NCBI GenBank assembly: GCA_951406725.2 | Contig: OX597830.1 | Location: 56,730,001 to 56,794,000, forward strand | Source of the DNA: Octopus vulgaris | Lineage: Eukaryota | Direction: 5' to 3' | Length of the DNA stretch: 64,000 bases | Shown here: one piece after another, positions 341 to 64,000 of the stretch | How the letters are laid out: every line of letters begins with the position of its first letter | How positions within the stretch are numbered: position 1 is the first letter of the stretch | Notes under the pieces: generated by a model | The model's input: only the letters and a program-made list of their open reading frames with translations | Told to the model about the DNA's origin: nothing | The model's database searches: none | Program-made: the position numbers and the translations under genes

Positions 341-2570
341 AAAAAAGGATTTTTATTAACATTAATGAATTTTATGAAGATTGACATAACTCTTCATGAA
401 GATAAAAAGACCCAATAAGAAGAGCATTGTTCTGTCTAGAGAGGAGTGTGCTGGATGTTCTTGTTAAAATTTTGAATTTCTGCATTTCTATATATTTTTC
501 AATAATAAATCTCTGAACGAGGTATAAACAGTAGCTGCACAACAATGTGAAGTATATTTACCACTTAAATGTGGCTAACCACTAAGGGTTGATGCTACTG
601 TAGCTTGTAGCCCCAGGAGAACATCTTCTCCAGCTGGCTATTGACACACTTTCTGTGTCTTATCAGTATTTGCAAAGGGAAGCTATCCTTCCCATTGTTG
701 ACCTGACGTTATATGCACGGACCCAGGTTTCATTTGTCCTTTTATACTCACGGACACACAGACAGACATACTGTCAAAATATTGTTCAGTTCAATAAACT
801 TACTGCCTTGTGCTCTTCTTATTGTGTATTAACATTATTCATCATCATCATCATCTTCATTTAGTGTCTGTTTTCGATGCTCACATGGGTTAGATGGTTG
901 GCTAGAACTGGTAAGATTGAGAGCTGCACGAGGCTCCCTTCTGTTTTGGTTTGGTTTCTATGGCTGGATGCCCTTCCTAATGCCAACCACTCCATAGTGT
1001 CTGCTGAGTGTCTTTTATGTGTCACCAGCATGACTGCCGTTAACATGTTACCAACACAGGTGCCTTTAACATGTCACCAGCCTGGGTGCCTTTTTTTTCT
1101 GATTCCAGCACAAACCAGCAATTTTGAAGGGAGCAGGTAAGTCAATTATATCACTCAAAGGCCACGTTGACATCAACAGAATTTGAACTCTGAAAATAAA
1201 GACCTGCAAAAAATATTAATTTCTTTACTACCCGCAAGGGGCTAAACACAGAGGGGACAAACAAGGACAGACAAACGGATTAAGTCGATTACATCGACCC
1301 AGTGTGTAACTGGTACTTAATTTATCGACCCCGAAAGGCAAAGTTGACTTCGGTGGAATTTGAACTCAGAACGTAACGGCAGACGAAATATGGCTACGCA
1401 TTTCGACCTGGAAGAAATATTGCTAAGAATTTACTGTAGCACAGTCGTGATTCTACCAGCTTGTTGCCTTCTTATTAATAATGATAATATTATTAACATT
1501 TTTTTTATTATCATTATTTTATTTGATATGTTTATTTATTTAGTTTTTGGTTTCGGCATCTACAGGCATGGTTCAAGTACTTTGCATGCTTTTTCTAGCA
1601 TTTTGTCAAATTTTTTCTATAAATATGTGTACATGCATGTGTGTTTGTGCGAGTATCTATGTATGTTAACATATTCAAATATATGTGTATGTATGTGTGT
1701 ATATGAAAATGTTTTATTTTAATATTTTCTACATGTATTGAAAACACAACTGCCTTTCTTTCTTTCTTGAACTTTTTAATCAAGTTATTTTTTTCCATAT
1801 TTTTGTAAGAATTCCTTGTAGCTATTTTTGAACCTTAAAGCTCCTTGATTCATCAGCAATGTATCATGCCATACAACACAAAAACAAAAACAAAAACAAA
1901 ATAAGAATGCCATTTGTGGACAATATGTCTATATTCTATACAGTTAGATTGGTTACTACAATTAGATTGTTAGAGGTAGGTGACACAGTTGGATGGGAGG
2001 GGTTGATAGGATTGGTTAGAGTGAAGCAGGGTGGCAAGATTGGTTTAAGTAGGAGCAGCATTAGTTTTGGGGTAAGGTGGCAGGGTTATTTATAGGGCTG
2101 TGGATTGATTGAGCATCAAATAAAATGTATAGAGGTATTTAGTTACATCCTTATATTGATGTATTTCATTGACCCTGGGTTCCCCATATTTTATAACAAT
2201 ACAGAATATATATATATGTATGTATACTAACTATATGCTTCTTCAGATGTCAGAAATATAACCTCTCTCATCGCATTTAATACCATCAATCAAACGCTGA
2301 GTATGTCAGTCCTCAAGGGCTATTCACTACTCTTAATCAGCCTTTCATCTGTTGCTGACATTTATTCTGGGTGCCTGGGCCTTCATGTTCTCACATTAGC
2401 AGGTGAGAAATGTGATCAACAGTTAAAACCTTATGTACATTATTTACATTTGACGGATATTTGTCCTCATCTTGTTTGTTGTTAACACAATGTTTCGGCT
2501 GATATACCCTCCAAACCTTCTTTTCGAACCTGGGTTCTCATTCCTAAGGTATTTTTCAATGTTGTTGTTG

Positions 2571-8218: not shown

Positions 8219-8486
8219 GTAAAATAATCATATTTATCAATTTTGAACTTGGTACCCTTGACTGACTATGTGGCTCATGATATTTCAGTGGTTCTGTTGA
8301 TACATATATTGAGTACTGAGTTCCTGGCATCTGTCTGAGAGGTCAGCTCTTCTTGTCTTATCATAAATGACCATCTGACTGATTGATAAATCTTCAATTA
8401 CAAACATCTCACAGCCACTGAATTGCAGGCCTACAAACCTATCATTCAAACCTTTACTCGCTAGTCCACCGCTTTGTGTGTGAAAA

Positions 8487-8715
8487 GGTGGCGAGCTGGC
8501 AGAAACGTTAGCATGCCGGGCGAAATGCATAACCGTATTTCGTCTGCTGTTATGTTCTGAGTTCAAATTCCACCGAGGTCGACTTTGCCTTTCATCCTTT
8601 TGGGGTCGATAAATTAAGTACCAGTTACGCACTGGGGTCAATGTAATTGATTTAATCCATTTGTCTGTCCTTGTTTGTCCCCTCTATTTTTGGCCCCCTG
8701 TGGGTAATAAAGAAA
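8487..8715 (+). mobile_element. tRNA-derived SINE family 1 (tail type GCCCCYTGTGGGTAATAAAGAAA)
   Basis: GGCGAGCTGGCAGAA A-box-like head, GAGTTCAAATTCC B box; other copies at 1220-1404(-), 56103-56332(-), 60801-61030(+). Confidence 0.85.
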
Positions 8716-9602: not shown

Positions 9603-10706
9603 TAATGATGACAGTTATTTCATTAAATACTTCATTATTTAAAAATTTAAATTGTAAATATGTGCATTGTTTTCTCATAATTTCTGTTTCAAATTTTAAA
9701 GATTTATCATAATTGTATTATACTATTATACTAACCCTAACCCTAATTGCTTTAATCCTACATGTAAGACATGTCATAAGTTAGATATTTAAGTACTGCA
9801 AAGTTGACAATTTTAAAATCTGGTCATATTTAGTTACGACCATTTGTGGTCATAACATGACAAAACCCTTCGAACATCATAGAAATACATAATGTGTTTC
9901 TGTTAAGATATGAAACTTGATGTGGGGATTTATTGCTTCACTATTCTGACTGTAACACCATTTTTCTTCGTTGTTTATTTAGCAACACCTGTCAGGTGTC
10001 ATCACATTTGTTTTCTAAGTTCAAACTCTACTTAGGTTGGCTTTGCCTTTCAGCCTTCGTGGGTCGATAAAATAAAACAACTGTCAAGTACTGGGCTTAA
10101 TTTTTTCTTAACTGTTTTCCCGCCCTCCCCAATTTCTGGCCTTGTGCCTATTTTAGAAATTATTATTCTAAGGCAGTGAATTGGCAGAATTGTTAGCATG
10201 TCAGACAAAATGCTTAACAGCATTTCTTCTGGCACTTCATGTTCTGAGTTCAAATCCTACCGAGGTCAACTTTGCTTTTCAGCCTTTTGTAGTTGATAAA
10301 ATAGAATACCAATTGTGTACTAGGACCAATGTAATTGACTGTCCCCTCCTCATAAAACTACTGATTTTATGCCAAAATTTAAAAGGCAGCAAGCTTTCAG
10401 AATTGATAGCTTTTTCGGACAAACTACTAAGCAGCATTTTTCCAGCTGTACATTCTGAGTTCAAATGCCATCAAGGATGACAACTTTTCCTTTTATCCTT
10501 TTGGAGTTGATACAGTAAGTACCAGTTAAGCACTGGAGTCAATATAATTCACTCACTCCCTTCTCCCAAGGATAATAATAATAATTATTATTATTAGACT
10601 AATACTTATGTTAATGCCTATAGCATTACTATTATTAATAGCAGCAATAAGCTACATGATGGTGCTCATGCTTATTTAAATATTTTCATTGATATTCCTC
10701 CTATAG

Positions 10707-33975: not shown

Positions 33976-34204
33976 CGCCTTGTGAGTGAATTTGGTAGAC
34001 AGAAACTGAAAGTCAGACATATATATATATATACTAGCATTAAAGACCCGTCGTTGTCGGGTCATATTGCTAGTGCATGTATATATGTGTATATATATGT
34101 GTACATATTACATGTACATCTATATATATACATCTACACATAAAATACAAAATACAAAGTTATATCTTGATATCGCTAGTGATAACAATACTCAAAATAT
34201 ATAA

Positions 34205-34504
34205 CAGACTGGAATTATTAGCCCGTCTCTTGTAATTTCGATCAATTGTAACTTGTCCACCCTCTTGTATAGAAGTGTGGCTACAATCCAGCCTACCTCT
34301 ACTTCTGGTGGGGGGGGGGGGGATGCGTTAAAAATTCTTTTCCGGGACGTCGTACGTCCCAGATATAAATGTAAGTATGTAATATATTTCCACTTTGCAA
34401 GTTCGAGTCGAGTACTCCCTCGTTGACTCGAACCTTGCTTCTATTGTGGCGAATTTACCTTTCATAGTCGCACCAAGACACTTTTCGAAGGTGCTTTCCT
34501 CCAT
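34205..34504 (-). pseudogene. Degenerate fragment of a more distant ORF1 relative
   Basis: MEESTFEKCLGATMKGKFATIEARFES / YLGRTTSRKRIFNA / PPEVEVGWIVATLL align by eye to IEKCL..MK..KYGTVEVR / YKGRRGVRVKIPNI / PPEVKTEWLATAIL. Confidence 0.62.
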
Positions 34505-34508
34505 GTTG

Positions 34509-36434
34509 TTTTATTATTACCCACAAGGGGCGAACATAGATGGGACAATACAATCGGGAAAAATGAATAATGAATTATGAAGTTTGTACAATGTGGTGTA
34601 ATGCCCACTCGATCCCCGAAATCGAGCGGTTACATTTCGTCATTTGTTTTTTATTCGTCAACAATATTTTCCAAATAAAAACATTTTACACATTTTCAAC
34701 ATACATTTCAAAAATTTTACAAAGTTCAACATTTTTTTTTCAGAATTTAAAGTTCTTTTTATCATTTCCAATTTAAAGTTTTCACAATACCTTTTCTTTT
34801 ATATATACTCCATTATCTCTACCAAATCTTGGTAAATTTCCATCGTTCGTGGCCATCTTGTAAGTCGGCATTTCATATATTTTGTCACGTTCTTGCCAGC
34901 TGCCTCGATGAACGCCTCAGCGTCGTTCTCGTGGACGAGTGCACCTGTTTCTTTCCATTCGGTGCCCATCCTGACCCACGTATATCCATTTGTTACGTTT
35001 ATTAAATCTTCCATCTCCTCACAGTGCCTGTGATGGATCAACGTTCCATAGTATTTGAATTTTCTATTCGTACCTACGTTTTCTCTAGTTTTTCTCTTAG
35101 GACTTACTTCCTCTTTTTTCTCCTCCCTCGGTTTCTCTCTTTCTCTCTTTTTGCTTTCTCTTCTTTCTTTTTCCTTCTCTTGTCTTTTTGGCTCTTTGTC
35201 TGCCGTCTCTCTACCCTGTGCCTTAAGTTCCTTTCCTGTTGTTTCTTTTCCTTTTTGCATACCATCTTTTCCTTTCTCTTGGTTCTGTTCCTTCTCTTGT
35301 TCTTTTCCTGCTTTTTCTCTTTCCTTTAATGTACTTTCCTTTTCTTTCTCTTGCTTCTGCCTTGGCTTCTTCTCCACTACTTCTGCACCCTGTGAATGTT
35401 GCTCCTTTTCTACTATCTTCTTCCCTTTGTTTTCATTTTCCTTCAGTGCGCTGTTACTTCCCTTCTCTTGTTGTTTCTCCGTTATTTCCTTTTCCTTGTT
35501 TTCGCTGTTCTTTCCTTCGTGTTCGTTTTCCTTCTCTCCACTTTGTGTCTCTTTTTTGCTCCGCTGTGAATTCACACAGCGGACATTCCTTTTTTATGTG
35601 CCCTCTTGTTCCGCACTGGTAGCAATTCGGTTTTCTGCCCTCCACTATTACACTAATTGTTTTCTCGTTTTCTATTTCTATTTGGAAGGGAAATCTTTCG
35701 ATGTCTTCCATTGTGGCCATCAGCCACAACTCTACTCCGAATCCCTTCCAATTTACAACGTTCGTCTCCTTGATTGACCCTATTTCTACTTCCTCCTTTG
35801 CTGCCCCAATAATGGCTGTTACCAGCATTTCTGTTTTAATATCTGGGGGCACCTTTGGGACTCTTACCCGTACCCCTCGTCTTCCTTTATACGTCGGCCA
35901 CATGGTGAAATTTTCGGCTTTCAGGACAGTGGAAGCCAATGAGACCGCCACTTCCTTTGTTGCGCATCTCACCTCCACCGTCCCATATTTCTTTCCTCTG
36001 TCTACAAAAGTCGCTTTTTTCATGATGTCCCCAGACATTTCTCTATTTCTTCAATCGTCACTCTCACCAGTTTTCTCGTGTTTCTATCTTGCGTTCTATA
36101 CGTTATCGTCTTGTTATTTCTCTCCTCTATTGTTTCAACAGGCGGGACCAGCTTCACGCTGTCACCCTCCCTTTTGACGAACTTCTCGTATTCCTTCAAT
36201 TGTTCTTTTCTAAAGAACACTTCTTTTATTCTAAGAGACTCGTCACTTTTTGTTGTGGCGACCCCCGCGTAAGTCTCCATGACTTTAGGGTCGACACACC
36301 TTCTATAAAAGGTTCAAACACGCAGCGGCAAACGCCTCGCGCGATTCAATTTTTGACAATTTTTAACAGTTTTTTTTCAAATTTTCACATACAAAATAAC
36401 TCAATACACACGTGGATTGCGTTCCGCCATGTGA
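34509..36434 (-). mobile_element. ORF1-only non-LTR-like retroelement, unit A
   Basis: 5' TCACATGGCGGAA, structured leader, ORF, 3' UTR hairpin, tail GCCCCTTGTGGGTAATAATAAAA. Confidence 0.75.
34799..36280 (-). pseudogene. ORF1/Gag-like ORF of unit A with two frameshifts
   Basis: ORF pieces 36020-36280, 35454-36038 and 34799-35575 are colinear with the 476-aa ORF; shifts fall near homopolymer runs (~36030, ~35550), so they could be assembly errors. Confidence 0.85.
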
Positions 36435-38365
36435 TTTTATTATTACCCACAAGGGGCGAACGTAGAGGGGGACAGTACAATCGGGGGAAAAAAATAAAAA
36501 TAATGAAATATGAAAATATGTATAAATGTGGTGTAATGCTCCACCCGATCCTCGAAATCAGGCAGTTACATTTCGTCATTTTATAATGTTTTCAACAGTA
36601 ACAAATTCATTTTTCAGCATTTTGCAATACATTTCAATACATTTCAAAATATAATTTCAAAATACATTATCAATTACAGAAAAATTGTTTTCACAAATTC
36701 ACATATAAATCTTTCGCAATACATCTTTAAGGTTTCAAAATACATAACCAAAAGTCTTTCCAAATTTTCTCCTTTTTTTTTTTTTTTTTTTCTTTAATTT
36801 TAAATTATCTCCATTACCTTTTTTAGGTCATTATAGTTTTCCATTTCTTTTGGGTACCTTAGTAGTCGGCACTTCATTTGTCTTGTTACATTCGTTCCAG
36901 CGGCTTTGATAAACGCCTCGGCGTTGTCTTCATGGATCAGTGCACCCGTTTCCTTCCACTCCGTGCCCATCCTGACCCATGAATATCCTTCCGTTTCGCT
37001 TATAAGTTCTTCCATTTCGCCACAGTGTTTATATTGTACCAATGTTCCGTAAAATTTGTATCTTCTATTTGACCCTATGTTTTCTTTGGTTTTCCTCTTC
37101 GGGCTTACTTCTTCTTTACTTCCCTCTCTCGGTTTTTCTCTTTCTCTCTTTTTGCTTTCCTTTTCTTTTTCCTTCTCTTGTCTTTTTGGTTCTTTGTCTG
37201 TCGTATGTTCTTTTCCTGTTTTTTCTTTTTGTGTAGTAGCCTTTCCTTTCTCTTGGTTCTGTTCCTTCTCTTGTTTTTTTCCTGTTTTTTCACTTTCCTT
37301 TATTTTACTTTCTTTTTCTTTCTCTATTACCTGTGACTTTTGTTCTTTTTCTATTAATTCCTTCTCTTTGCCTTCATTTTCCTTCTGTGTATTGTTATTT
37401 CCTTTTACCGTTGTTTCCTTTTCCTTGCTTTCTTTCTCCTTTAGAGTATTGTTCCTTTCTTCGGGTTCTTTTTCTTTCTCTTTTCTGTTTTCCTCTGCTC
37501 TTTCACACTCCGCCACAAATTCGTAAAGCGGACATTCTTTTTTAATATGACCTCTTGTCCCACATAGATAACAGTTGGGCTTCCTCCCCTCAACTATTAC
37601 GCAGAGGGGTCTACCATCTTCTACTTCTATTTGGAAGGGAATTCGGTCTATATCTCTGTTTGTGGCTGTCAGCCACATCTCTATTCCGAATCCCTTCCAT
37701 TTCACTATGCTGGTCTCTTTTATCGATCCAATTTCTATACCTTCTTCTGCTGATCCTAGGATGGCTGTTACCAGCCATTCTGTTTTTAAATCTGGGGTTA
37801 TGTTTGGGATTTTAACCCGCACCCCTCTTTTCCCCTTGTAGGTAGGCCACATGACGAAGTTTTCGCCTCTGAGTACGGTGGTAGCTAGTGAGGCCGCAAC
37901 TTCTTTTGTTGCGTACCTCACCTCCACCGTACCATATTTTCTGCCTCTGCATACAAAGGTAGCCTTTTTCATAACGTCGTCCAGACATTTTTCTATGTCT
38001 TCTATCGCTATTCTCGATAGCTTTCTTGTGGTCGTGTCCTGTGTCCTATAGATTATAGTTTTGTCCTCTTTTTCCTCCTTTGCTTCAACAGGGGGGACCA
38101 GCTTCACTCTGTCATCCTCCCTTTCAATGAATTTCTCAAATTCCTCAAGCTGTTCTTTTTTAAAGAACACCTCTCTTACTGTCAGCGGCGTATCGCTTTT
38201 CATTGCGGCAACCCCCGCGTAAGTCTCCATGACTTGAGGGTCGGCACACTTTCTACAAAAAGTTTCTAACGCGCAGCGGCAAATGCCTCGCGCGATTCAA
38301 ATTTCAATTTCTATCTACAAAACTATCAATTACTTAACACACGCAAATTGATTTCCGCCGTGTGA
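36435..38365 (-). mobile_element. ORF1-only non-LTR-like retroelement, unit B
   Basis: Same layout; 5' TCACACGGCGGAA; tail directly abuts the 5' end of unit A. Confidence 0.78.
36800..38230 (-). CDS. Intact 476-aa ORF1/Gag-like nucleic-acid-binding protein (CCHC zinc knuckle, K/E-rich linker) of unit B
   Basis: Open ORF; CYLCGTRGHIKKEC = CX2CX4HX4C; preceding VRVKIPNI..P..W segment resembles non-LTR ORF1 RRM-like region; no RT follows before the 3' tail. Confidence 0.88.
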   Translation of the reverse strand: METYAGVAAMKSDTPLTVREVFFKKEQLEEFEKFIEREDDRVKLVPPVEAKEEKEDKTIIYRTQDTTTRKLSRIAIEDIEKCLDDVMKKATFVCRGRKYGTVEVRYATKEVAASLATTVLRGENFVMWPTYKGKRGVRVKIPNITPDLKTEWLVTAILGSAEEGIEIGSIKETSIVKWKGFGIEMWLTATNRDIDRIPFQIEVEDGRPLCVIVEGRKPNCYLCGTRGHIKKECPLYEFVAECERAEENRKEKEKEPEERNNTLKEKESKEKETTVKGNNNTQKENEGKEKELIEKEQKSQVIEKEKESKIKESEKTGKKQEKEQNQEKGKATTQKEKTGKEHTTDKEPKRQEKEKEKESKKREREKPREGSKEEVSPKRKTKENIGSNRRYKFYGTLVQYKHCGEMEELISETEGYSWVRMGTEWKETGALIHEDNAEAFIKAAGTNVTRQMKCRLLRYPKEMENYNDLKKVMEII

Positions 38366-40151
38366 TTTTATTATTACCCACAAGGGGCGAACATAGAGGG
38401 GACAATACAATCGGGGAACTTAAAATAAGAAAGCGAATGACAAGAAAAGGAAAAAATAAAAGTAAAAAATGACATATGAAAAGAATATTTACAATGAGAT
38501 GTAAATGCCCACTCGATCCCCGGAATCGAGAGGTTACATTTTCGTCACATATAGTTCACAATATTTTCTTTTTTCTCTTCTTTCTTCTCTCTCTTCTCAC
38601 AATTCTATACGTATTCCATAATAGTTTTCAATTCTCTAAAGTCAATCACTGAGCCCTCAGGCAGCCGCTCTCTCACTCGAACACTCGTGTAAAACGTTAC
38701 ACTCTCTCCGGCAGCTCTGAGGAACTCAGCGACTCTTTCTTCGGGGATTAGAGCAGTCTCCTGCCACTGATCGGTCATCCTGTTGACCCATATATGTCCC
38801 TCCGTACTACTTGTCAATTCTTTCATTTCAGGGCAGAAATGGAAGGTTATTAACTTGTAGAAGCCGTGATCTTGTTTCCGTCCTACGTTTTCCCTCGTTT
38901 TTCTTTTCGGGCTTATTTCTTCCTTGTTCTCCTCTCTTTGTTTCTCTCTTTCTCTCTTTTTGCCTTCTTTTCTTTCCTCTTCCTTCTCTTGTCTTTTTGG
39001 TTCTTTGTCTGTTCTATCTTTCTCTCGTGTTTTATGTTCCTTTTCTTTTTCTTTTTGTGTGCCGTCTTTTCTTTTCGTTTGGTTCTGATCTCTCTCTTGT
39101 TTTTTTTCCTGTTGTTTCTTTTTCCTTTTTTTTTTCCTGACTCTGTTTTGGTTCTATTTCTTTCTTTTCTTTTATTTCTTTTTCCTTCATTGACTTATTA
39201 TTTCCTTTCTCTTGTTGTTTTGTTTCCTTTTCTATGTTTTCTTTTTCATTTACCGTATTCTTCTTTTCGAGCTCCTGCTCACACTCCGCTACGAATTCGT
39301 ATAACGGGCACTCTTTTTTAATGTGCCCCCTTGTCCCGCACAAGTAGCAGTTTGGCTTTCTTCCCTCTACAATTACACTGAGGGTTTTCTCGTCTTCGAT
39401 TTCTATTCTATAGGGGAACCTTTCAATGTCCTCTTTTGTGGCCATCAAACACAGTTCTACCCCATATCCTCTCCAATTTATCTGCGTTGGACTCCTTAAA
39501 GGATTCCACCTCCACTTCCTCTTCTGCTGCTCCTAGAATAGCTGTTGCCAGCCATTCTGTTTTTACTTCTGGGGGTATATTCGGGATTTTAACCCGGACC
39601 CCTCTTCTTCCCTTGTATGAGGGCCACATTATAAATGTTTCCGCTCTTAGAACAGTGGTAGCCAGTGAGGCTGCAATTTCTTCCGTTGCACATCTCACCT
39701 CCACCGTACCAAATTTTTTCCTCTACTCACGTAGGTCGATTTATCCATTATGTCTCCCAGACATTTTTCGATCTCTGCTATCTCCACTCTTGCCAGTTTC
39801 TTTGTACTTTTGTCCTGGGTTCTATACGTTACAGTTTTGTTTTCTTTGTCCTCTTTTGCTTTCGCGGGGGGATTAGCTTCACGCTATCACCCTCCCTTTT
39901 GAATAGCTTTTCATATTCTTTGATTTTACTTTTCTCAAAGAAAACATCCTTCACGATTATCGACGAATCATTATTTTTCTTTCCCGTGACCCCCGCGTAA
40001 GTCGCCATGACTAGAGGGTCAATTCACCTTCTTCGGAAGGTTTCCACACGTGGAGGCAAACGCCTCGCGCGATATTAATCACTTTACACAACAAAATTTC
40101 AACTTCTAATCACAGATAACAACACACGTGGGTAAATTTCCGCCGTGTGTG
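38366..40151 (-). mobile_element. ORF1-only non-LTR-like retroelement, unit C
   Basis: Same layout; 5' CACACACGGCGGAA; tail directly abuts the 5' end of unit B. Confidence 0.75.
38605..40008 (-). pseudogene. ORF1/Gag-like ORF of unit C, frameshifted
   Basis: ATG at 40008 (MATYAGV...); pieces 39423-39704, 39032-39448 (CYLCGTRGHIKKEC) and 38605-38826 are homologous to unit B. Confidence 0.85.
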
Positions 40152-40826
40152 AAAATCTGCTGTTTTCTCTACATTGTATACTTTATAGACAATAGTATTT
40201 TCTTTGATTTACTTTTATCCATCTGGACTATTACATTTCTGCACGCAAATTTATTTTTTAATTTATTCGCATTCATGTGAAACCACTTATTCAAGTTCAA
40301 GTCATTGATGCAATTTTATACCAATTACTATTTTTACTTTTTTTAAAGTTACGATTATATTATACTTTTTAATTATTTTAATTATTACTTACTACATATA
40401 ATTCAATAGTTATTATTATTTTTATTGTTAAAGTGAAAGTATCTGACATATAATAGAGAAATGTTTTTGTTTCACTTTTAACACGTAATACTGAAATAGT
40501 GGCGAAGATATGATATTGCTATGGGCTCGCTCTAGGCAAGAAGGTGAACATTTCTTTTGCCCATGAAACTACATGTGTAAAATTTGAATGAAAATTGATT
40601 GTGTAGTTCTCAAGTTTTAGGGAATCGTAGTGGAGAAGATATGATATAGCTGCGGGCTCGCCCTAGGCAAAAGGTTAAAAATATTTTTGTCGACGACACT
40701 CCCCGGACCCTGAGTAAGGCGTGTGTAAAATTTGAATGAAATTGGTTGTGTAGTTCTCAAGTATTAGGGAAACACACAGACAGACAGACATTCTCAGTTT
40801 TATATATATAAAGATATATATAAAGA

Positions 40827-43800
40827 TATCAAAGAGGGTGCCGAAAGAGATGAAAGAAGAGTCCCGAAAGAGATCAAAGAGGAGTCCCGAAAGAGATCAA
40901 AGAAGAGTCCCGAAAGAGATCAAAGAGGGTGTCGAAAGAGATCAAAGAGGGTGCCGAAAGAGATCAAAGAGGAGTCCCGAACGAGATCAAAGAAGGTGCC
41001 GAAAGAGATCAAAAAGGGTGCCGAAAGAGATCAAAGAGGGTGCCGAAAGAGATCAAAGAGGAGTCCCGAGCGAGACCAAAGAGGGTGCCGAAAGACATCA
41101 AAGAGGGTGCCGAAAAAGATCAAAGAGGGTGCAGAAAAAGATCAGAGAGGGTGCCGAAAATGATCAAAGCTTGTGCCGAAAGAGATCGAAGATGGTGCCA
41201 AAAGAGATCAAAGAGGAGTCCCGAACGAGATCAAAGAGGGTACCGAAAGAGATCAAAGAGGGTGCCGAAAGAGATCAAAGAGGGTGCCGAAAAAGATCAA
41301 AGAGGGTGCCGAAAGAGATCAACGAGGTGTCCCGAAGGAGATCAAACCGGTTCAAACCCGATCAAACCGGATCAAACCGGATCAAACCGGTTCAAACGGG
41401 ATCAAACCGTTTCAAACTGGATCAAGCCTGATCAAACCGGTTCAAATATCAGGAAAGTCTGGAATGTAAGGAATGTCTGGAATGTCAGGAATGTCAGGAA
41501 TGTCTGGAATGTCAGGAATGGAAGGAATGTCAGGAATGTCTGGAATGTCAGGAATGTCTGGAATGTCAGGAATGTAAGGAATGTTTGGAATGTCAGGAAT
41601 ATCAGGAATGTCAGGAATGTCTGGAATGTTTGGAATGTTTGGAATGTCAGGAATGTCTGGAATGTCTGGAATGTCAGGAATGTAAGGAATGTCAGGAATG
41701 TCTGGAATGTGAGGAATGTTTGGAATGTGAGGAATGTTTGGAATGTCAGGAATGTCAGGAATGTGAGGAATGTCAGAGATCAAAGATGGTGCCGACAGAG
41801 ATCAAAGACGGTGCCGATAGAGATCAAGGTGTGTGCCGACAAAGATCAAATACGGTCCCGACAAACCGGTTCAAACCGGATCAAACCGGTTCAGACCGGA
41901 TAAAACCGGATCAAACCGGTTGAAACCGGATCAAAACGGTTCAAACTGGATCAAGCCTGACCAAACCGGTTCAAATGTCAGGAATGTCAGGGATGTCTGG
42001 AATGTCTGGAATGTCAGGAAAGTCAGGAATGTCAGGAATGTCAGGAATGTCTGGAATGTCAGGAATGTCTGGAATGTCAGGAATGTCAGGAATGTCAGGA
42101 ATGTCAGAGATCAAAGATGGTGCCGACAGAGATCAAAGACGGTGCCGATAGAGATCAAGGAGTGTGCCGACAAAGATCAAATACGGTGCCGACAAACCGG
42201 TTCAAACCGGATCAAACAAGTTCAAACCGGATCAAACCGGATCAAACCGGTTGAATCCGGATCAAACCGGTTCAAATCGGATCAAACCGTTTCAAACCGG
42301 ATCAAAACGGTTCAAACTGGATCAAGCCTGATGAAACCGGTTCAAATGTCAGGGATGTCTGAAATGTCTGGAATGTCAGGAAAGTCCAGAATGTCAGGAA
42401 TGTCAGATCGTGCCGACAAAGAAAGACGGTGCCGACAAAGATCAAATACGGTGCCGACAAACCGGTTCAAACCGGATCAAACCGGTTCAAACCGGATCAA
42501 ACCGGTTCAAACCGGATAAAACCGGATCAAACCGGTTGAAACCGGATCAAACCGGTTCAAATCGGATCAAACCGGTTCAAACCGGATCAAAACGGTTCAA
42601 ACTGGATCAAGAATGATCAAACCGGTTCAAATGTCAGGAATGTCAGGGATGTCTGGAATGTCTGGAATGTCAGGAAAGTCAGGAATGTCAGGAATGTCTG
42701 GAATGTCAGGAATGTCTGGAATGTCTGGAATGTCAGGAATGTCTGGAATGTCAGGAATGTCTGGAATGTCTGGAATGTCAGGAATGTCTGGAATATCTGG
42801 AATGTCAGGAATGTCAGGAATGTCAGGAATGTCAGGAATGTCAGGAATGTCTGGAATGTCAGGAATGTTTGGAATGTGAGGAATGTCAGAGATTAAAGAT
42901 GGTGCCGACAGAGATCAAAGACGGTGCCGATAGAGATCAAGGAGTGTGCCGACAAAGATCAAATACGGTGCCCACAAACCTGTTCAAACCGGATCAAACC
43001 GTTTCAAACCGGATAAAACCGGATCAAACCGGTGGAAACCGGATCAAAACGGTTCAAACTGGATCATGCCTGATCAAACCGGTCCAAATGTCAGGAATGT
43101 CAGGGATGTCTGGAATGTCTGGAATGTCAGGAAAGTCAGGAATGTCAGGAATGTCTGGAATGTCAGGAATGTAAGGAATATTTGGAATGTCAGGAATGTC
43201 AGGAATGTCTGGAATGATGGAATGTCAGGAATGTCTGGAATGTAAGGAATGTCAGGAATGTGAGGAATGTGAGATCAAAGATGGTGCCGACAGAGATCAA
43301 AGACGGTGCCGACAGAGATCAAGGATTGTGCTGACAAAGATCAAATACGGTGCCGACAAACCGGTTCAAACCGGATCAAACCGGTTCAAACCGGATCAAA
43401 CCGGATCAAACCGGATTAAAACTGTTCAAACTGGATCAAGCCTGATCAAACCGGTTCAAATGTCAGGAATGTCAGGGATGTCTGGAATGTCTGGAATGTT
43501 AGGAAAGTCAGGAATGTCTGGAATGTAAGGAATGTCAGGAATGTGAGGAATGTGAGATCAAAGATGGTGCCGACAGAGATCAAAGACGGTGCCGACAGAG
43601 ATCAAGGATTGTGCTGACAAAGATCAAATACGGTGCCGACAAACCGGTTCAAACCGGATCAAACCGGTTCAAACCGGATCAAACCGGATCAAACCGGATT
43701 AAAACTGTTCAAACTGGATCAAGCCTGATCAAACCGGTTCAAATGTCAGGAATGTCAGGGATGTCTGGAATGTCTGGAATGTTAGGAAAGTCAGGAATGT

Positions 43801-45140
43801 CTGGAATGTCAGGAATGTTAGGAATGTTTGGAATGTCAGGAATGTCTGGAATGTCTGGAATGTCTGGAATGTCAGGAATGTCTGGAATGTCAGGAATGTC
43901 AGGAATGTGAGGAATGTTAGAGATCGAAGATGGTGCCGACAGAGATCAAAGACGGTGCCGATAGAGATCAAGGAGTGTGCCGACAAAGATAAAATACGGT
44001 GCCGACAAACCGGTTCAAACCGGATAAAACCGGATCAAACCGGTTGAAACCGGATCAAAACGGTTCAAACTGGATCAAGCCTGATCAAACCGGTTCAAAC
44101 GTCAGGAATGTCAGGGATGTCTGGAATGTCTGGAATGTCAGGAAAGTCAGGAATGTCAGGAATGTCAGGAATGTCTGGAATGTCAGGAATACCTGGAATG
44201 TCTGCAATGTCAGGAATGTAAGGAATGTTTTGAATGTCAGGAATGTTAGGAATGTCTGGAATGTCTTGAATGTCACGAATGTCAGGAATGTCTGGAATGT
44301 CAGGAATGTCAGGAATGTCAGGAATGTCAGGAATGTCAGGAATGTCTGGAATGTCAGGAATGTCAGGAATGTCTGGAATGTCAGGAATGTCAGGAATGTG
44401 AGGAATGTCAGAGATCAAAGATGGTGCCGACAGAGATCAAAGACGGTGCCGATAGAGATCAAGGAGTGTACCGACAAAGATCAAATACGGTGCCGACAAA
44501 CCGGTTCAAACCGGATCAAACCGGTTCAAACCGGTTCAAACCGGATCAAACCGGTTGAAACCGGATCAAACCGGTTGAAACCGGATCAAAACGGTGCAAA
44601 CTGGATCAAGCCTGAATGTCAGGAATGTCTGGAATGTCAGGAATACCTGGAATGTCTGGAATGTCAGGAATGTCAGGAATGTAAGGAATGTTTTGAATGT
44701 CAGGAATGTTAGGAATGTCTGGAATGTCTTGAATGTCACGAATGTCAGGAATGTCAGGGATGTCTGGAATGTCTGGAATGTCAGGAAAGTCAGGAATGTC
44801 AGGAATGTCTGGAATGTCAGGAATGTCTGGAATGTAAAAGGAATGTCAGGAATGTCTGGAATGTCTGGAATGTCAGGAATGTTTGGAATGTCTGGAATGT
44901 CAGGTATGTCAGGAATGTCTGGAATGTCAGGAATGTTTGGAATGTGAGGAATGTCAGAGATCAAAGACGGTGCCGAAAGTGATTAAAGAGTGTGCCGACA
45001 GAGATCAAAAAGTGTGCCGACAAAAATCAAAGACAGTGCCGAGAGAGATCAAAGACGGTGCCGATAGAGATCAAGGAGTGTGCCGACAAAGATCAAATAT
45101 GGTGCCGACAAACCGGTTCAAACCAGATCAAACCGGTTTT
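40827..45140. repeat. Complex higher-order satellite (22/23-bp, 10-bp and 9-bp subunits)
   Basis: AAAGAGATCAAAGAGGGTGCCG blocks, AAACCGG(A/T)TC blocks and GGAATGTC(A/T) blocks cycling in fixed order. Confidence 0.95.
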
Positions 45141-46689: not shown

Positions 46690-47600
46690 TTTAAATATAA
46701 TAAGAAGAATATATTTTAACTATTCTCAGTGGCGCATTTTTAACTTCTATTTTTAGTATATTTCCACCCGTGTGATGCAAGATCTGATGAATATGGTGGA
46801 TGACAGAGTACTTCCTAGTTCAGTTCCTGTAACTTGAATAGCGTTCTTTCTGCAACATGTGGTCGAACATTGTATTGCAAGAGAATTGGCCTGTCTCTGT
46901 TGACCAATCTCAGTTGTTTAATTGCAAGTTCACTCATCATTTCATCCAACTGGTTGATGTATACATCCGCTGTAATTGGCTTACCATGAATCTGTAGTGG
47001 ATAATACCAGCGCTGGTCCACCAAACAGACCATTAGATATTTTCGATAAATATTCTTTTTTGGATTATGTTTTGGCACTTCGTCTCTATCCAACCACCGT
47101 GCAGAACGCTTGCTATTGTTGAAAAGAATCCATTTTTCATCACAGGTAGCAACACGATGCAAAAATGGTTCACTTTTATGTTGTGATAGTAAAGAACAAG
47201 TTTCAATGCGACGTGTCATTGGACGTTCGTTCAGTCTGTGTAGTACCTACTTGTCCAGATTCTTTACCCAGCCGATTTGTTTCAGATGATACAAAACAGT
47301 TGGAATCGAAACATCAAACCTTGCTGCTAACACACGCGTAGTTTGAAATGTATTCGCTTCCACTACAGTTTCCAGTTCATTATTATCCACCTTGGTCTCA
47401 GGTCTACCTCGAGGCTGATTTTCAAGAATCACCAGACCGGAACTTCTCAGACCGCTGATGTACAGTGCGCTCATTCGCCACATCTTCACCAAACACCTCG
47501 TTGATGCTTCGAGCTGCCTGGAATGCATTGGTTCCACGACTGAACTCATATTCATAAACAACACAAATTTTTGATCTATGCATGGGTTCACAAAAATTGA
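46690..47600 (-). mobile_element. Mariner fossil (second family)
   Basis: ENQPRGRP, TCDEKWI, LLQYNVRPH, HPPYSSDLA motifs; frameshifted. Confidence 0.9.
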
Positions 47601-47752: not shown

Positions 47753-49375
47753 CGTGCATATATGTATATATGTGCATATATGCCTTGGCTCTCTGTCGGT
47801 TACAAGGAGTGTTCCAGTTGATCCGATCAACAGAACAGCGTACTTTTGAAATTAAAGAACATGTGATTGAGCACTTCACTGTCACACGTACAATTTAACT
47901 TGGTTCCCTGGGAAATTCAGAGTGACACAACGAACGTTACCAGGCTGGGCCTTTGGAAAACTCATTTTTGCCAGTTGAGTGGACCGGTGCAACGAGAAAT
48001 AAAGTGTTCTTCTCGACAGCAAAACCCATCACTGAGAAACGATCTCAGGACTTTCAGATCTTGAGTGGAATGTGTTGAATACTTTGGCCATTAAGCCACG
48101 CACCTTCCCGTATGTGTATATATGCCGAATCGGTATTCTAGAAGAGTCGGGATCTTGTTATGGACCTTCGAAACTTGAAATAGCAACGAACTCAATCAAA
48201 CGACGAAGCTGGCCCACAAATCATCCACAGAAAATGCTGTCAGCCGATAATAGATAACGAATAGGTATTGTTAAAAGTACCATAACTTTAAGAAAAATAC
48301 TGGCTAAGTTTTCTTTATACTTTCTTTTGGCGTGTTTTTAAATACATTTCTTAAGCAACTGAATTGTAATATCTGAAGAGGGTTCGTGTGTTATGTATGT
48401 GCTTGGGTGTGTGTGCATGTGTATGCGGACGTGTGTATCTCTAGTAAAAGAACTTGAAAAACAACATAACAACGTTTATATGTTAGTAAGGAAGAGTATA
48501 AACTCAGACAAGAGATATAAACTTGAGAAGCGGTATGTAGTGAAACTAGAGGACTACATAACTTTCGAAATACTGACATAGGGAAAGAAGGCAAGTGAGT
48601 GATGTTGACTGATGAGGCGTTTAACATCACTTTCATCCTTCATTTTCACCCTTTTCATCCTTTTATCATACAATTATGTTTTTGTTTTAATTTTAATTTT
48701 TGATGCTTTGTGTCCCCAATGTGTTGTGATGTACCCCTCTATGTAAACCCTTTATGGGAAATAAAGAAATAATGTGTATCTCTAGCATGTGTATATAAGA
48801 TGTTTTCCTAGTTTAATGTTAACAATTGAGCATTCATCTTTCGGGAGCTCAATACAGTTACTGAATACGTATTTCCTTCCCTACTTTTTTTTTTACTAAT
48901 AAATGATGATTTAGCTTTTACATATTTAATGCAAGGGAAGTCAAAAAAGTTAACTAGAAATTATTATATTAGTAAGGAAAAACAATATCGTTCATCGACT
49001 GATATTGTTTTTGAATTATTCTCTAAGTATGGGAGACTGCTTCAGGGATGTTACGATCTCATAACATCGTCATTGTCTTATGTAATAAAGAAGCGAAAGG
49101 AGAATCTATTTTTGTTGTTGTTGTTGTTTTAGATGTGAAATGCAGTAAACTGTAAACAGGTCGGCATGGAAACCAGACTTGTTTAAAGAATGAAGAAATA
49201 AAATGTGTGATATCGATGTTAAAGAAACATATGTAAGTCAACACCATATAGACGCTTTCTTTGGGAAAGAAGTGAAGTTAGTATTAACGTATTTAATACA
49301 AAGAAGAGAATCAATAACAGAAAAATAGACATAATCATGCAGTAAGAAAAAACAAAGATATATTCGTTATTGACA

Positions 49376-49454
<79 letters not shown>

Positions 49455-49646
49455 TGGTGAGCTGGCAGAATTGATAGCACGCTTAGTGGTATTTCGTCTG
49501 TCGCTACGTTCTGAGTTCAAATTCCGCCGAGGTCAACTTTGCCTTTCATATTTTCGGAGTCGATAAAATAAGTACCAGTTGAACACTGGGGTCGATGTAA
49601 TCTACTCATCCCCATCTCCCTATGCTGCCATTGTGGCAAAAATTGA

Positions 49647-50304: not shown

Positions 50305-51590
50305 GAAGAAAGGGATATTGGATATTGGAAATGGATATATTGATGGAGAAAGAAATGACGGAAAAATTTAAGGTAGAGTACTTGCGCAGACTAAGATTGA
50401 TCCTTAAGTCGAAATTAAACGGACGGAATAAGATTGAAGCCATCAACACCTGGGTGGTTTAACTCTTTAGATATGGAGCAGGGGTAATCGTATGGACAGT
50501 AGACGAATTAAACAGCTTAGACAGAAAGACAAGGAAGTTGCTGACTAGATATGGGACACTCCACCCAAAAAGTAACACAGACAGACTGTATGTACCAAGA
50601 AAAAGAGAGGGAAGAGGACTGATTGGATGCGAACACAGCATTAGAGCAGAAGAAAACAACATAGCATGGAATGTAAAAAATGTCACAGAACCGCTATTAC
50701 TGGAAGCAAGAAGCTCAGGCTTGCGTAGGATGGAAGATTGCAAAGATAAAGCACTGTAGAAGGATTTGAGAATGAATGAAACTGGAAATAGATGGATAAA
50801 GAAAAGAATGCATGGACAATTTCATTGGGATGCTGAAGATAAGACACGGAGAGAAAAAAAGATGGTTATGGATGACTAAAAGTGATTTAAAAACGGAAAC
50901 GGAGGCTTTAATCTGTGCTGCCCAAGAGCAAGCATCAAGGACCAATTACATCAAATACAGAAAGGGATAAGTGTAGAATTTGTGGACAAAATAGTGAAAC
51001 CGTATAGCATATTACCAGTAAATGTACACCACTAGCTCAGAAAGAATATAATAGACGTCATGACAATATAGTAAGGACTGTCCATTGGACACTTTGCAAC
51101 ACGTATGGACTTGACAGAGCAAAAACAAGTAGTACGAACATAAACCCGAAGGCATCATCGGAAATGATAATGCAAAGATTCTATGGGACTTTAAGATTCA
51201 GTGCAACCATGAGATAGAGAATAGGCAACCAAATATAGTGTTAACTGAGAAAGAAAGCAAACGATGCTGGATCATAAATATAGCGTACCCTGCTGACAAC
51301 AAGGTATTCGATAAGGTAGAAAGAAAAGTCGATAGATATAACAAGTTAACTTCAGATGTTAAGCAGTTGTGGTCGCTGAAAAAGGTGGTAGTAGTACCAA
51401 TAATTGTCGGAGTCCTTGTCTTGAGAAGTAAATGGAACAAATAGGGGCTGCAATAAGGGTGGAGTACTTGTAGAAAACAGCACTGCTTGGAGCCGCTCGA
51501 ATACTCCGGATGGTGCTCGAAAAATAAGGGGTGTTACTTTAGTTCACTGGTAGTGATCAGCTGACACCGTAATACATCTCCAGCGTTAGA
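50305..51590 (+). mobile_element. 5'-truncated R4/Dong-like non-LTR retrotransposon, decayed
   Basis: LKSKLNGRNKIEAINTW, DRLYVPRKREGRGL, CRICGQNSET.HITSKC, RRHDN, QPNIV..CWIINIAYP, VVPIIVG; ends in AATAATAA. Confidence 0.9.
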
Positions 51591-51906
51591 ATAATAATCT
51601 TTTCTACTCTAGGAACAAGGCCCGAAATTTTGGGGGATAGTGCCAGTCGATTAGATAGACCCCAGTATGCAACTGGTACTTAATTTATCGGCCCGAAAGG
51701 ATGAAAGGTAAAGTCGACCTCGGCGGAATTTGAACTCAGAACGTAAAGACAGACGAAATACTGTCAAGCTCGGCGTACTAACGTTTCTGCCAGCTCGCCG
51801 CCTTCTCGTTTTAAATAATAATATCACACCAAATGTGTTGAGTGCACTTTTCCTTCGTTTACCTACTCATTCTTATATGTATATGTGTATGTGCGTGTGT
51901 ATGTGC

Positions 51907-55982: not shown

Positions 55983-56102
55983 ATACAATCCTACTCCAGT
56001 GTTTATCTTGGCAGGTTGTTTTATGTCCTTCGTAATGCCAACCATGTTACTGCACATACTGGGTGCATTTCTGTACCACTAGTAGTTATGATACAGTGTA
56101 TA

Positions 56103-56332
56103 TTTCTTTACTACCCACAAGGGGCTAAACCCAGAGAGGACAAACAAGGACAGACAAACGGATTAAGTCGATTACATCGACCCCAGTGTGTAACTGGAAC
56201 TTATTTAATTGACCCCGAAAGGATGAAAGGCAAAGTCGACCTCGGTGGAATTTGAACTCAGAACGTAGCAGCAGACAAAATACTGCTAAGCATTTTGCCC
56301 AGCATACTAATATCTCTGCCAGCTCGCTGCCT
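56103..56332 (-). mobile_element. SINE family 1, full-length copy
   Basis: Reverse complement of the 8487-8715 type. Confidence 0.85.
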
Positions 56333-56919
56333 TCATATCTATGATACAATGCAACTTGCAAGACAATGAACCCAAGAGAGTGTGGTTTACATTCGGATAT
56401 GAGGGGTTAAATGCTGAGAGAAAGGGCCACAGCAGAAAATACTAGATGAGCTACATGTTTACTTATTTTATAAGAGAAGGTGGGGAGGTGGAATGAGATG
56501 AAAATGGTAGTGATGAGGTGTTTAGGTGGACCCTCAAGGTGACTAAAAGAGAAGAACAAGGACTGTGGGTGGGAGAGGATTTCAAGGGTGCAATGGAGAA
56601 TTACAGTCGAGGAATCATCAAGAGGAAGTAGGTGACAATTGTGAAGACTGGGCACAGCTGAAGGGTAGATGTAGCAAATGGGGGATAAGGGTGGGGGATG
56701 CCAAATGTTGTATGCATCACAGAAAGTAGGGAAAGGAAAGACTGGACAATGTGTAAGGATGTGGGTGTGTGTGTGTGTGTGTGCTTTGTATGTGTGTATG
56801 TGTGTGTGTGTAGTTGTGTATAGGTTTGCATGCAGAAAAATAAACAAATAGATGTATTGATATTTTTATTAACATTTTTATTCCATTGAAGTTAATTAGA
56901 ATAATAAACATAAAGTTAG

Positions 56920-60800: not shown

Positions 60801-61030
60801 GGGTGGTGAGCTGGCAGAATCGTTAGCACACCAGGCGAAATGCTTAAAGGTATTTTGTCTGCCATTAAGTTCTGAGTTCAAATTCCACCAAAGTCAACTT
60901 TGCCTTTCTTCCTTTCGGGGTCAGTTAAATAAGTACCAGTTATGCACTGGGGTCGATGTAATCGACTTAATCCCTTTGTCTGTCCTTGTTTACCCCCTCT
61001 ATGTTTAGCCCCCTGTGGGCAATAAAGAAA
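60801..61030 (+). mobile_element. SINE family 1, full-length copy
   Basis: Matches 8487-8715. Confidence 0.85.
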
Positions 61031-64000
61031 TAAACATACTTAATGATGGAGTATTCCTATCATTAGTTCCACCCATGCCAGTATGGAAGGTGGACATTAA
61101 ACAGTGATGATGATGATGACGCATAACATATCAGTTACTGTTTTCAACTGATGATTTCACTCAAGAAAATTTTTTATGTCACAAAATTAAAAACCAATAT
61201 GAAGCTATAAGCAAAACTCAAATCCTTCCTGTTAAATTAATTGACATTTTCCTTTTATTGTTTGTCAGTATAAATAATTATACTGAGATCAGACAAAATA
61301 TTCACAATTGAAGAATATTATTGTCAATTTCTAACCACTGAAAAAGTTATTTGAGGAAAAGGACAAAGTTGCAAGTTAATAGGATATAGTACAAATAGAA
61401 CTAATGGTTAAGTGTTTGTAGTTTGTCACTGGTGTTGCATGAGTTCAAGGTTAAAACACTTAACTGATCAATCCTCCTAACAATAAATAGGAGAATGCAA
61501 TAAAGGAAATTCAAACTTGTAGAGTTGGCTTGATATCTTTCTTTGGAATTCAGACATAACATTTTTTCATACAGTTCTATGGGTAACAAAGTAAAGTAGA
61601 CCCAATAAGAATAAATGAAGCCTTGAAAATAAACAGATAAGTTTTAATGCCTTTATTGAGACAAAGATGTCAGTTATTATCTCATGAGCTGTCATAAAGT
61701 TGAATCAAGTTTCATGTTTGTAAGGTAGTAAACAAGGATACTTAAAACTCTATCAGGTCATTGCCATTTTGTTCTATTCTCAACTTGAAGTTTTAATTCC
61801 GTTAGAATCAACTTTGTCATTAACCAGTCAGAGCAAATGAAATGTATACTATGCTCTCAAGTGTATTTGGTCAACTACATCCTACCCTTATTATTTTTTT
61901 CTTGAGAAAATTGTTTTGCTAGTGTCAGAACATCAGCTTAATGCATATAAATTTGAAAATGAAATCACTTACAAATCCTTGTCATTACTGTCAGGTTTAT
62001 GCTGCCTTGAGAGGTAAGACTGAACCATCTTATGCTCCCACTCAAGTAAGTAGCTTGCATAATCAGAGCGATATTCACGTGCTGTGGAAGAAAGTTATAG
62101 CAGCAATTAATTATTGAAATAAAAAGTTATTCTAGATAAGTTGTAGTGGTTACAGAGTGTCAAGATAAACACACAAGGTTGTAATGTTTAAGGAGTGTAG
62201 TTGCAACTCATAATGTTCTACAAGAGATTATGGAGTGTAGCAGTGAAGGAAAGATAAAACTGCAGTGGCTGTAGAGTACACTGGTAATGGTTATATAAAG
62301 CTCTAGTGATGATAAAGTATAATGATAACATGGAGATGAAATTGTAGTAGCTTTGAAAGGTAGTGGCAATATGGAAATACTGCAGACGTAGTTATAAGGT
62401 CTATGAGATAATGTTGGAGATGCTACAGAGTTAAATAGTAAATGCTGTTTGGTTAGATAATGTTGATGTAACAATCATTGTAGTAATGAAGTACAATGGA
62501 GTACACTTATAAAAAGTTAGTGGTTATAGACTGCAGTGTACATCTAGAGAAAACGTTGCATTGGATTACATTATGTAAGTGCTGTTATGTGCATAATGTC
62601 GAGGCTGTAGAGTTTAATAGTAACAGAAAGTTGCAGCAGCAATGGAGTGTAATCGTAACCTGTAGACAATGCAGTGGCCATATAATGTAGAGGTAATGCA
62701 AATATATACATACAATTGCTGTGGAGTTAAAACATAGATAAGGTTGTGGTAACTAGGACATAGTTTTAAAAAGAGATTATGTCGTACTGGTTATTGAATG
62801 CAGTGCTAAGATAAATTTGCATTTGCTATGAAGTGTAGTAATAATCCATTAAATACAAGAAACGGCTGGATTGATCTTGAAGACATGAAACCAGAAAAAT
62901 GTTGTAGTGTGTTTATGAAGTATAGCAATGACATGGATTCTGTTGTGTCTGGGGAGAGTCATTTTCTTTTTGTGCCTTATAATGTAACACACTCAATGGT
63001 AAAATTTCCACTTATTTCTTATTTCTATTTTCCTAAAACTTTTGTTGCGTCTTGCAACTTTTTCAATAGTCTTGACTCTGTTTGTTATTTACACTGCGTT
63101 CCCTTTTGTTTGTTTGTGCATGCATGTACGAATGTATGTGTGTATGTATGTATGCATGTGTATGTATGTATATATGTGTGTGTGTGTGTGTGTGTGCATC
63201 TGTATGTATGTATCCTGTATATTCATGTGCTTGCATGTCCATGTTTGTGTATTTACTATGTATGTGTGTGTGAGCATGTGTTTGTATATGTATGCACCTC
63301 TGTCTCCTTGTGTGTGCATGTGTGTGTGTGTGTGTGTGTGTATGCACTAACAGATTGGTAGTACATATATCATAATGTAGTTGCTAGAGGGTTTAGTTCT
63401 AACAAACAGGTAACAATGTAGTGGCTGTGGAATGAAGTTGCATATATAAGAGTTTATGAAGCATAATGGTAACACAAAGAGTTATAGAGGCAATGCAGTG
63501 AATAAAGTGTGGTGGTTATGAAGATAATTAGGCTGTTGTGGCTATGGATTATAGCAGTAATAACTGGGTAAAGTTTTAGAGGATCCTTTGTTATGGCATA
63601 TACCCCTGCTGTTAGTGACTAACAAACAGATTTCTTGCAGACACCTCAGTTATGTAGTATAGTGATGCAAAATATCTCTAACAGTAAAAACTGTATCCAA
63701 TAATAGGCAGAAGTACAAATTTGGAAAATCACAAATAATAGAAATAAAACAAAGAAAAAGATATTTACAAAATACGTATTTTATTCCAGGCCCCTGATCT
63801 TTTGTCTTTTGATACAGATAACGACAAAATTGGTAGATGTTACTGAGTATTACAAATGGAGGAGGCAAAAGAGGGCGGATAGAAAACTCATTGATAATGT
63901 AATATCTTTGGAAGAACCAGTGGAGATTACTTTTTTTCTGAACTTTTTCATAAGTAGAACTGAAAAGGGAAAACAGAAAATATTATGGAGTACAACTAAT

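Follow-up and report, generated by a model that had tools for sequence, protein, structure and literature searches.

A short 3′ tail common to Tx1-type LINEs, ORF1-only units and an abundant SINE in Octopus vulgaris

Nicking of the target followed by target-primed reverse transcription is established for LINEs in general. Elements of the L1 group are mostly thought to select their RNA by its poly(A). In the L2 clade binding of the tail has been shown, and in the zebrafish L2 elements the loop decides the specificity (PMC4176376). SINEs with tails of the L1 clade are rare; a survey counted just three, all of them from plants or algae (Ohshima 2012, PMC3472496). For naming the Tx1 partner of a passenger, a shared target has been employed as the criterion (Kojima 2015, PMC4494074). 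The octopus annotation documents 13 active L1-Tx1 families and, in the larger part of its text, no such partnership (PMC13282606), and passages of three further papers pair no cephalopod SINE with a Tx1 element (PMC4824008, PMC4758252, PMC11481361). The literature searched, supplements and Repbase aside, gave no paper on a Tx1-tailed SINE of cephalopods or on Tx1-derived ORF1-only elements; names for these families may exist already in Repbase or in the repeat libraries that accompany PMC13282606.

The present analysis started from a window of 64,000 nt of the Octopus vulgaris genome (contig OX597830.1, positions 56,730,001 to 56,794,000, forward strand), in which a 47-nt tail closes several ORF1-only units and recurs, in related form, at the ends of a SINE. 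The reading we favour, with a probability of about 0.62, is that this tail is the 3′ end of an autonomous LINE, termed here family A, which likely copies the units in trans, and that the SINE is probably moved by a sister LINE.

The array, its host and the shared tail

Three ORF1-only units, U1, U2 and U3, lie head to tail on the minus strand with spacers of 13-14 nt, all of them inside a Helitron-like host. The features are as follows, in coordinates of the window.

34034..40814, minus strand: host element, non-autonomous and Helitron-like, containing the array; 5′ TC and 3′ CTAG, between A and T
34045..34063, minus strand: subterminal host hairpin, at a distance of 11 nt from the 3′ end
40137..40149, minus strand: target-site word bordering the array on its left, 13 nt identical to the U1/U2 spacer
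38366..40136, minus strand: U1, ORF1-only unit, ORF1 broken by frameshifts
38366..38412, minus strand: U1 tail, 47 nt, 46/48 identity to the family-A LINE tail
38352..38365, minus strand: U1/U2 spacer, target-site-like
36435..38351, minus strand: U2, ORF1-only unit
36800..38230, minus strand: U2 ORF1, intact, 476 aa, with one CCHC zinc knuckle (PF00098, E 1.8e-4) and a long Lys/Glu-rich stretch
36435..36482, minus strand: U2 tail, 44/48 identity to family A
36421..36434, minus strand: U2/U3 spacer, target-site-like, a variant of the same word
34509..36420, minus strand: U3, ORF1-only unit, ORF1 broken
34509..34555, minus strand: U3 tail, 47/48 identity to family A
34495..34508, minus strand: target-site word at the right end of the array, present once in empty Helitron copies

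ORF2 is absent from U1, U2 and U3. Helitrons are diagnosed by a 5′ TC, a 3′ CTRR, a subterminal hairpin, an AT target and multiple copies. The host shows all of these, with CTAG at its 3′ end and 1,209 exact genome matches to a 27-nt internal word. In the first 30 of these 1,209 copies a unit occupies the target site in 2 and is absent from 28, and the unit-less copies carry the spacer word once or show a short deletion. Because the empty copies have the spacer word once, the spacers are target-site words. The commoner Helitron variant (window 34400-34500 (-); L143-L172) has at the target site a segment of ~300 nt that weakly resembles ORF1; it may be an old insertion which has since become the new target. 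The 5′ end of the Helitron adjoins a complex satellite of alternating 22-, 10- and 9-nt units (40822-45138), and a fragment of a mariner-type transposase lies at 46815-47219 (-) (PF01359). A search of the 64-kb window against Rfam gave no matches.

The ORF1 of the units is under purifying selection, with dN of 0.14-0.18 and dS of 1.30-1.64 among the three unit types. Its core is just 36-39% identical to the ORF1 of family A, with synonymous sites saturated, and 31-39% identical to the local Tx1-type ORF1s. Since ORF1 has diverged with low dN and high dS, yet the tail is near-identical to that of family A, the units represent old protein-coding lineages under selection whose tail looks young. 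The homology to the family-A tail ends at 47-48 nt in all three units; the tail of a sister family, G, matches them in 35-36 of 50-51 columns. Either a very strong constraint or a replacement from the active LINE would produce such a tail, and the sharp boundary fits replacement.

It had been predicted that the 3′ terminal ~40 nt of the ORF1-only units are common to the SINE, and blastn within the window bears this out with 81-88% identity over 38-47 nt. The unit end recovered all four SINE tails of the original prediction, namely 8671-8710 (+) with 87.8% over 41 nt (E 6.5e-7), 1264-1219 (-) with 83%, 60994-61031 (+) with 84% and 56147-56102 (-) with 81%, together with the tails of the two sister units, which end at 36435 and 34509. 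Aligned with the majority SINE 3′ end, which was built from 239 copies, the three unit tails scored 53, 38 and 48, compared with 22, 23 and 21 for the best of 300 shuffles of each. The SINE copies in question and one related stub are listed below.

8485..8715, plus strand: SINE copy with the sister tail
1219..1411, minus strand: SINE copy, 5′-shortened, with the sister tail
56102..56333, minus strand: SINE copy with the sister tail
60802..61031, plus strand: SINE copy flanked by a 19-nt target-site duplication, also with the sister tail
48724..48770, plus strand: isolated tail of the same layout in variant form, probably what is left of the 3′ end of another family

Contigs from four runs over 34300-38500 have loose ends at the tail which continue into SINE-type and LINE-type sequence and are uninformative on transcription.

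Family A and the clade of tailed LINEs

The ORF1 matches in the genome led to a LINE with this tail downstream of its ORF2, family A, an L1/Tx1-type LINE with endonuclease and reverse transcriptase (RT). The original prediction required an ORF2-bearing element with this tail, and family A has the tail and shares the target site of the units. In an ORF1 search of the 2.8-Gb genome, with 150 of 13,009 candidates scored, 2 of the 10 ORF1 loci read upstream had as neighbour the C-terminus of an ORF2 closed by the unit tail. Twenty longer stretches revealed full two-ORF elements, ORF1 upstream of ORF2, which share the arrays and the Helitron site with the units. One family-A copy (L048) has an open ORF2 of 1,127 aa with the domains Exo_endo_phos (PF03372), RVT_1 (PF00078) and zf-RVT (PF13966), the APE endonuclease being N-terminal and the zinc motif C-terminal. 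The best solved relative of this ORF2 is human L1 ORF2p (217 bits; R2, 79 bits), and a coral protein that bears the name of Xenopus TX1 is 35% identical to it over 421 aa (231 bits). Among relatives with a name, the nearest to the LINE comes from Argonauta hians (63%). In a quick RT tree, drawn up without curated Tx1 or L1 references, an RTE-like outgroup is distant from family A. Judged from these sequence relationships, family A is an L1/Tx1-type LINE with an RT nearer to L1 than to other clades. A search of the Atlas for the family gave only RT clusters without names. Relatives in the fish Coilia grayii (P0107, P0108, P0121-P0131) have consecutive locus tags, which suggests that they also occur in tandem arrays.

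The best 150 copies of family A are 89-99% identical and 57 of them have a frame of at least 1,127 aa. The tail is present at 39 of 40 family-A 3′ ends; 19 of these 39 pass directly into the right arm of the Helitron and the other 20 into the next unit or another repeat. In elements with the family-A tail the end meets the target word directly, with no run of poly(A) in between. A same-tailed subfamily of A was also observed in a second host repeat, outside the Helitron (L368, L369, L381). The genome contains 283 exact A-type tails, and the first 30 of these sit on ORF2 in 13 cases and on ORF1-only units in 17, one of the latter assigned from its 3′ UTR.

Units and family A are also neighbours. 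At 27 of 96 ORF1-only loci (one row per array from the ORF1 search, set against 130 of the best 150 family-A rows) a family-A ORF2 is found on the same strand within 20 kb, where 0.09 were expected, and in 26 of the 27 it lies downstream of the units. The Helitron site is also occupied by LINEs on their own (L379, L380) and by units on their own (L365, L014, L029), and units outside any Helitron carry duplications of 18 nt and longer (L017, L025); the duplication lengths of units and family A are 12-18 nt or more. The solo LINEs, the solo units and the units outside Helitrons with duplications of 17-18 nt or longer argue for independent retrotransposition of units and LINE. Arrays on different chromosomes resemble each other in the order of their units (L005/L030, L006/L016/L018, L007/L022), which suggests that some arrays were duplicated as blocks. 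In L017 and L025 the units outside the Helitron still have part of its target word at their 5′ end, suggesting that transcription of the unit begins in the flank.

The same tail layout, with other stems, is found in the two-ORF families B, F, B′, G, D and E, whose ORF2 is 81-83% (B and F), 75% (B′), 74% (G), 60% (D) and 55% (E) identical to that of A. In the quick tree A, B, F, B′ and G group together as a clade (SH-aLRT 99). Related and apparently intact families, at 74-96% ORF2 identity, differ in target and in details of the tail. Keno elements are known to target U2. In family E, three copies (L113, L115, L118; 2447-2641, +) end directly before full U2 snRNA genes (Rfam), and an old repeat is also among the targets of this family. 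Family D (L081-L110), with many intact frames of 1,149 aa, is followed by (ATCT)n in all 29 readable loci of 30, L105 being left out. Both copies of family G that were found, one of them by chance, lie at position 48 of the SINE: a two-ORF copy between SINE 1-63 and SINE 49-231 with a 13-nt duplication (L385), and an internally deleted one (L395/L422). LINEs of family B′ (L364, L396, L399) and ORF1-type passengers lie at SINE position 15. A preference of the Tx1 kind is thus seen for the Helitron in A, (ATCT)n in D, U2 genes in E and SINE heads in G and B′, and family-specific targets of this sort are typical of Tx1 as described in PMC4494074. A further ORF1-only family, C (L051-L080, L375), is dispersed and mostly 5′-truncated; over 54 nt it is ~91% identical to the SINE, and its stem contains a compensatory change. 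The 58 genome matches to a 26-nt SINE-tail pattern led to this family, and no ORF2 was found in the 30 loci read among them.

The stem-loop of GCCC/GGGT type that had been predicted fared differently depending on the measure employed. A 4-bp stem with a 5-nt loop is possible in both the unit and the SINE, but the single sequences fold like their shuffles: z is between -0.29 and +0.45 for the unit and SINE tails and between -0.83 and +0.53 for seven of eight tails, with one family-E tail at -2.1. Across 25 distinct tails (row D_L084 left out of the alignment) pairing of the 4-bp stem extends to 86% of cells, and 9 double changes occur; none of 500 shuffles comes as high, and slid controls give 23-46%. 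The rows are related, so that they can beat such shuffles, and the structure was derived from one row. RNAalifold gave a shifted 3-bp register at -1.36 kcal/mol. A register-free test found a stem of at least 4 bp in 20 of 26 tails, most single tails not being significant. The putative stem-loop has support from covariation and none from thermodynamics.

Landing sites of the SINE and the choice of carrier

The SINE is very abundant, with 52,328 exact genome matches to a 28-nt tail word. Duplications of 10-19 nt flank 11 of 37 full copies (null 1.4%), and the first five bases after the SINE end are strongly biased (25-34 of 37 per position). Its 3′ tail is homologous to a LINE 3′ end, as expected of a SINE with a LINE-derived tail. 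ARAGORN detected no tRNA in 4 SINE loci. Words in the SINE head look A/B box-like when compared by eye with the consensus, and the SINE may resemble the Meta domain of MetaSINE. A second, different 3′ tail occurs on the same SINE body at 49442-49620, 51590-51807, 3200-3430 and 10159-10570.

At the main Helitron word no SINE was found among 29 elements with a SINE-type terminus, in a search that covered one of two target words and required an exact terminus; 28 of the 29 belong to another ORF1-only family, of which the remaining element is a stub. SINE ends are often followed by another SINE. Position 48 comes next in 21 of 41 tail-word loci, some of them from the same chains, and in 7 of 26 bystanders, and position 15 in 2 of the 26; the loci were not chosen for the position 48 site. 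In the SINE chains (L184-L187, L302, L327-L329), which advance in steps of 184 nt and 217 nt, the further copies start at SINE position 48 or 15, and either DNA targeting or template jumping could account for them. Two aimed searches for a LINE at position 48 found none in the 2 and 30 loci read, and 10 further atypical junctions at this position were all SINEs; at position 15 there was 1 LINE among the first 30 matches. Family G looks rare beside 52,000 SINEs.

The mechanism that we favour can be put as follows. The ORF2 protein of the LINE would bind the short hairpin tail instead of poly(A), nick a fixed site and prime reverse transcription there. The unit RNAs would supply their own ORF1 protein and borrow the ORF2 of family A. 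As every insertion would recreate the target word, copies could stack head to tail, and the old ORF1-only lineages may match their tail to the active LINE by template switching or by recombination within arrays. The SINE would have acquired its tail from the same clade, its mover probably being a SINE-targeting sister such as G. A more general version, to which we give less than even odds, is that the clade as a whole reads a common poly(A)-less hairpin tail with the landing site set separately, that the ORF1-only lineages keep renewing their 47-nt end and that the SINE combines the loop of A with the site of G.

A single carrier for both passengers is less likely again, with an appreciable probability left: family A, or its direct ancestor, might have moved the units and the SINE alike. 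The landing sites would then differ either through base pairing between the end of each RNA and its target or through a less specific endonuclease in the ancestor. The SINE has the same stem and the same 5-nt loop as A, and its homology runs ~62 nt into the 3′ UTR of A (alignment score 60-73 with an 11-nt gap, compared with 76 for the ORF1-only family C and 53 for G). That A carries the SINE remains arguable because the loop equals that of A and the loop decides specificity in zebrafish L2 (PMC4176376); the loop of G differs at two places. Same-tailed subfamilies of A already occur in more than one host repeat, the bias in the five bases after SINE ends is what priming by the RNA end would give, and the duplications of the SINE (10-19 nt) overlap in length with those of units and A. 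On the other hand, the tail of G has the terminal bases and the stem spacing of the SINE, those terminal bases match G, F, B and E but not A, the sister LINEs G and B′ occupy the SINE's own sites, no SINE was among the 29 elements at the Helitron word, and 283 exact A-type tails stand against 52,328 SINE tails. The idea that SINE and ORF1-only element use one autonomous LINE was therefore right in that a LINE with the tail exists at the site of the units, and doubtful in that the SINE was not found there and stacks at the SINE positions 48 and 15, where G and B′ insert. The idea of one LINE applies at the level of the clade and only uncertainly at that of the family: sequence favours A and landing site favours G. 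The notion of a three-party system gave way to more than three parties, with several LINE families, several ORF1-only families and the SINE.

Two other explanations concern the units only. If a single assembly event or a few had given rise to the arrays and the Helitron had then carried them along passively, co-location would tell little of the mobiliser; the similar unit orders on different chromosomes and the LINE downstream of the units in 26 of 27 loci would fit. We regard this as improbable in view of the 28 of 30 Helitron copies that are empty, the solo LINEs, solo units and several other families at the same site, the units outside Helitrons with duplications of their own, and a 5′-truncated LINE copy with a 17-nt duplication (L372). 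The unit tail might also be a fragment of the SINE that inserted alone, to which its 81-88% identity to SINE ends lends some colour. This origin was rejected and has scarcely any probability left: the unit tails match the LINE in 44-47 of 48 columns and the SINE majority in just 36-38 of 48, and the homology to the LINE stops at the identical base in three old lineages. An independently inserted SINE fragment with its own target-site duplication was looked for, and instead the tail stands at the 3′ end of successive units without any duplication of its own. The favoured reading, copying of the units by family A and probable transport of the SINE by a sister LINE, is the one compared below.

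Comparison with known systems

In this animal a Tx1-type clade apparently relies on a short structured tail, which LINEs, ORF1-only passengers and a SINE of more than 50,000 copies have in common. The differences in target and tail among related families bear on how ORF2 recognizes RNA without poly(A) and on whether protein or RNA sets the target. Every single ingredient has a precedent, and no description of the combination was found in the literature searched, supplements and Repbase aside.

The units have a selected ORF1, no ORF2, a LINE-type 3′ end, duplications of their own and solo copies, as is expected of a non-autonomous LINE that retains ORF1. HeT-A forms head-to-tail arrays with autonomous partners, as the units do here. 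A classification of the units as HAL1 or HeT-A proper was rejected, since their ORF1 is akin to the local Tx1-type ORF1s (31-39%) and the likeness is functional. HeT-A (Jockey), HAL1 (L1) and Ag-Sponge (CR1), as described in PMC5786205, resemble the units in that ORF1 alone is kept and RT is borrowed. Compared with those elements the units are of Tx1-type origin, interstitial rather than telomeric and present as several old lineages, and they combine an ORF1 only 36-39% identical to that of the partner with a near-identical 47-nt tail.

The tail itself is best compared with that of the pairs ZmSINE2/3 and LINE1-1_ZM in maize and SINEX-3_CR and L1-1_CR in Chlamydomonas (PMC3472496, PMC3747384), which have a common 3′ end of ~45-50 nt and a hairpin with compensatory changes. 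The octopus system differs in being animal, Tx1-type, target-specific and without poly(A), and in having the tail on ORF1-only elements as well. Zebrafish ZfL2-1 and ZfL2-2 provide the model of an ORF2 that reads a short 3′ stem-loop (PMC4176376); they belong to the L2 clade, and reading of the stem-loop was tested there by assay, whereas it is deduced here from sequence comparison.

The closest likeness in targeting is offered by Tx1-Mar with SINEU in crocodilians and Tx1L in Tx1D in Xenopus, as documented in PMC4494074. There too the elements lie at fixed positions in another transposon with passengers at the same target. Tandem insertions there enclose a duplication, and separate families serve separate passengers and sites. 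The host in octopus is a Helitron, or the SINE for the sister families, and the passengers include protein-coding ORF1-only families. Moreover, partner and passengers share a clear 3′ tail here, while the account of SINEU-1 in PMC4494074 gives no LINE resembling its 3′ region.
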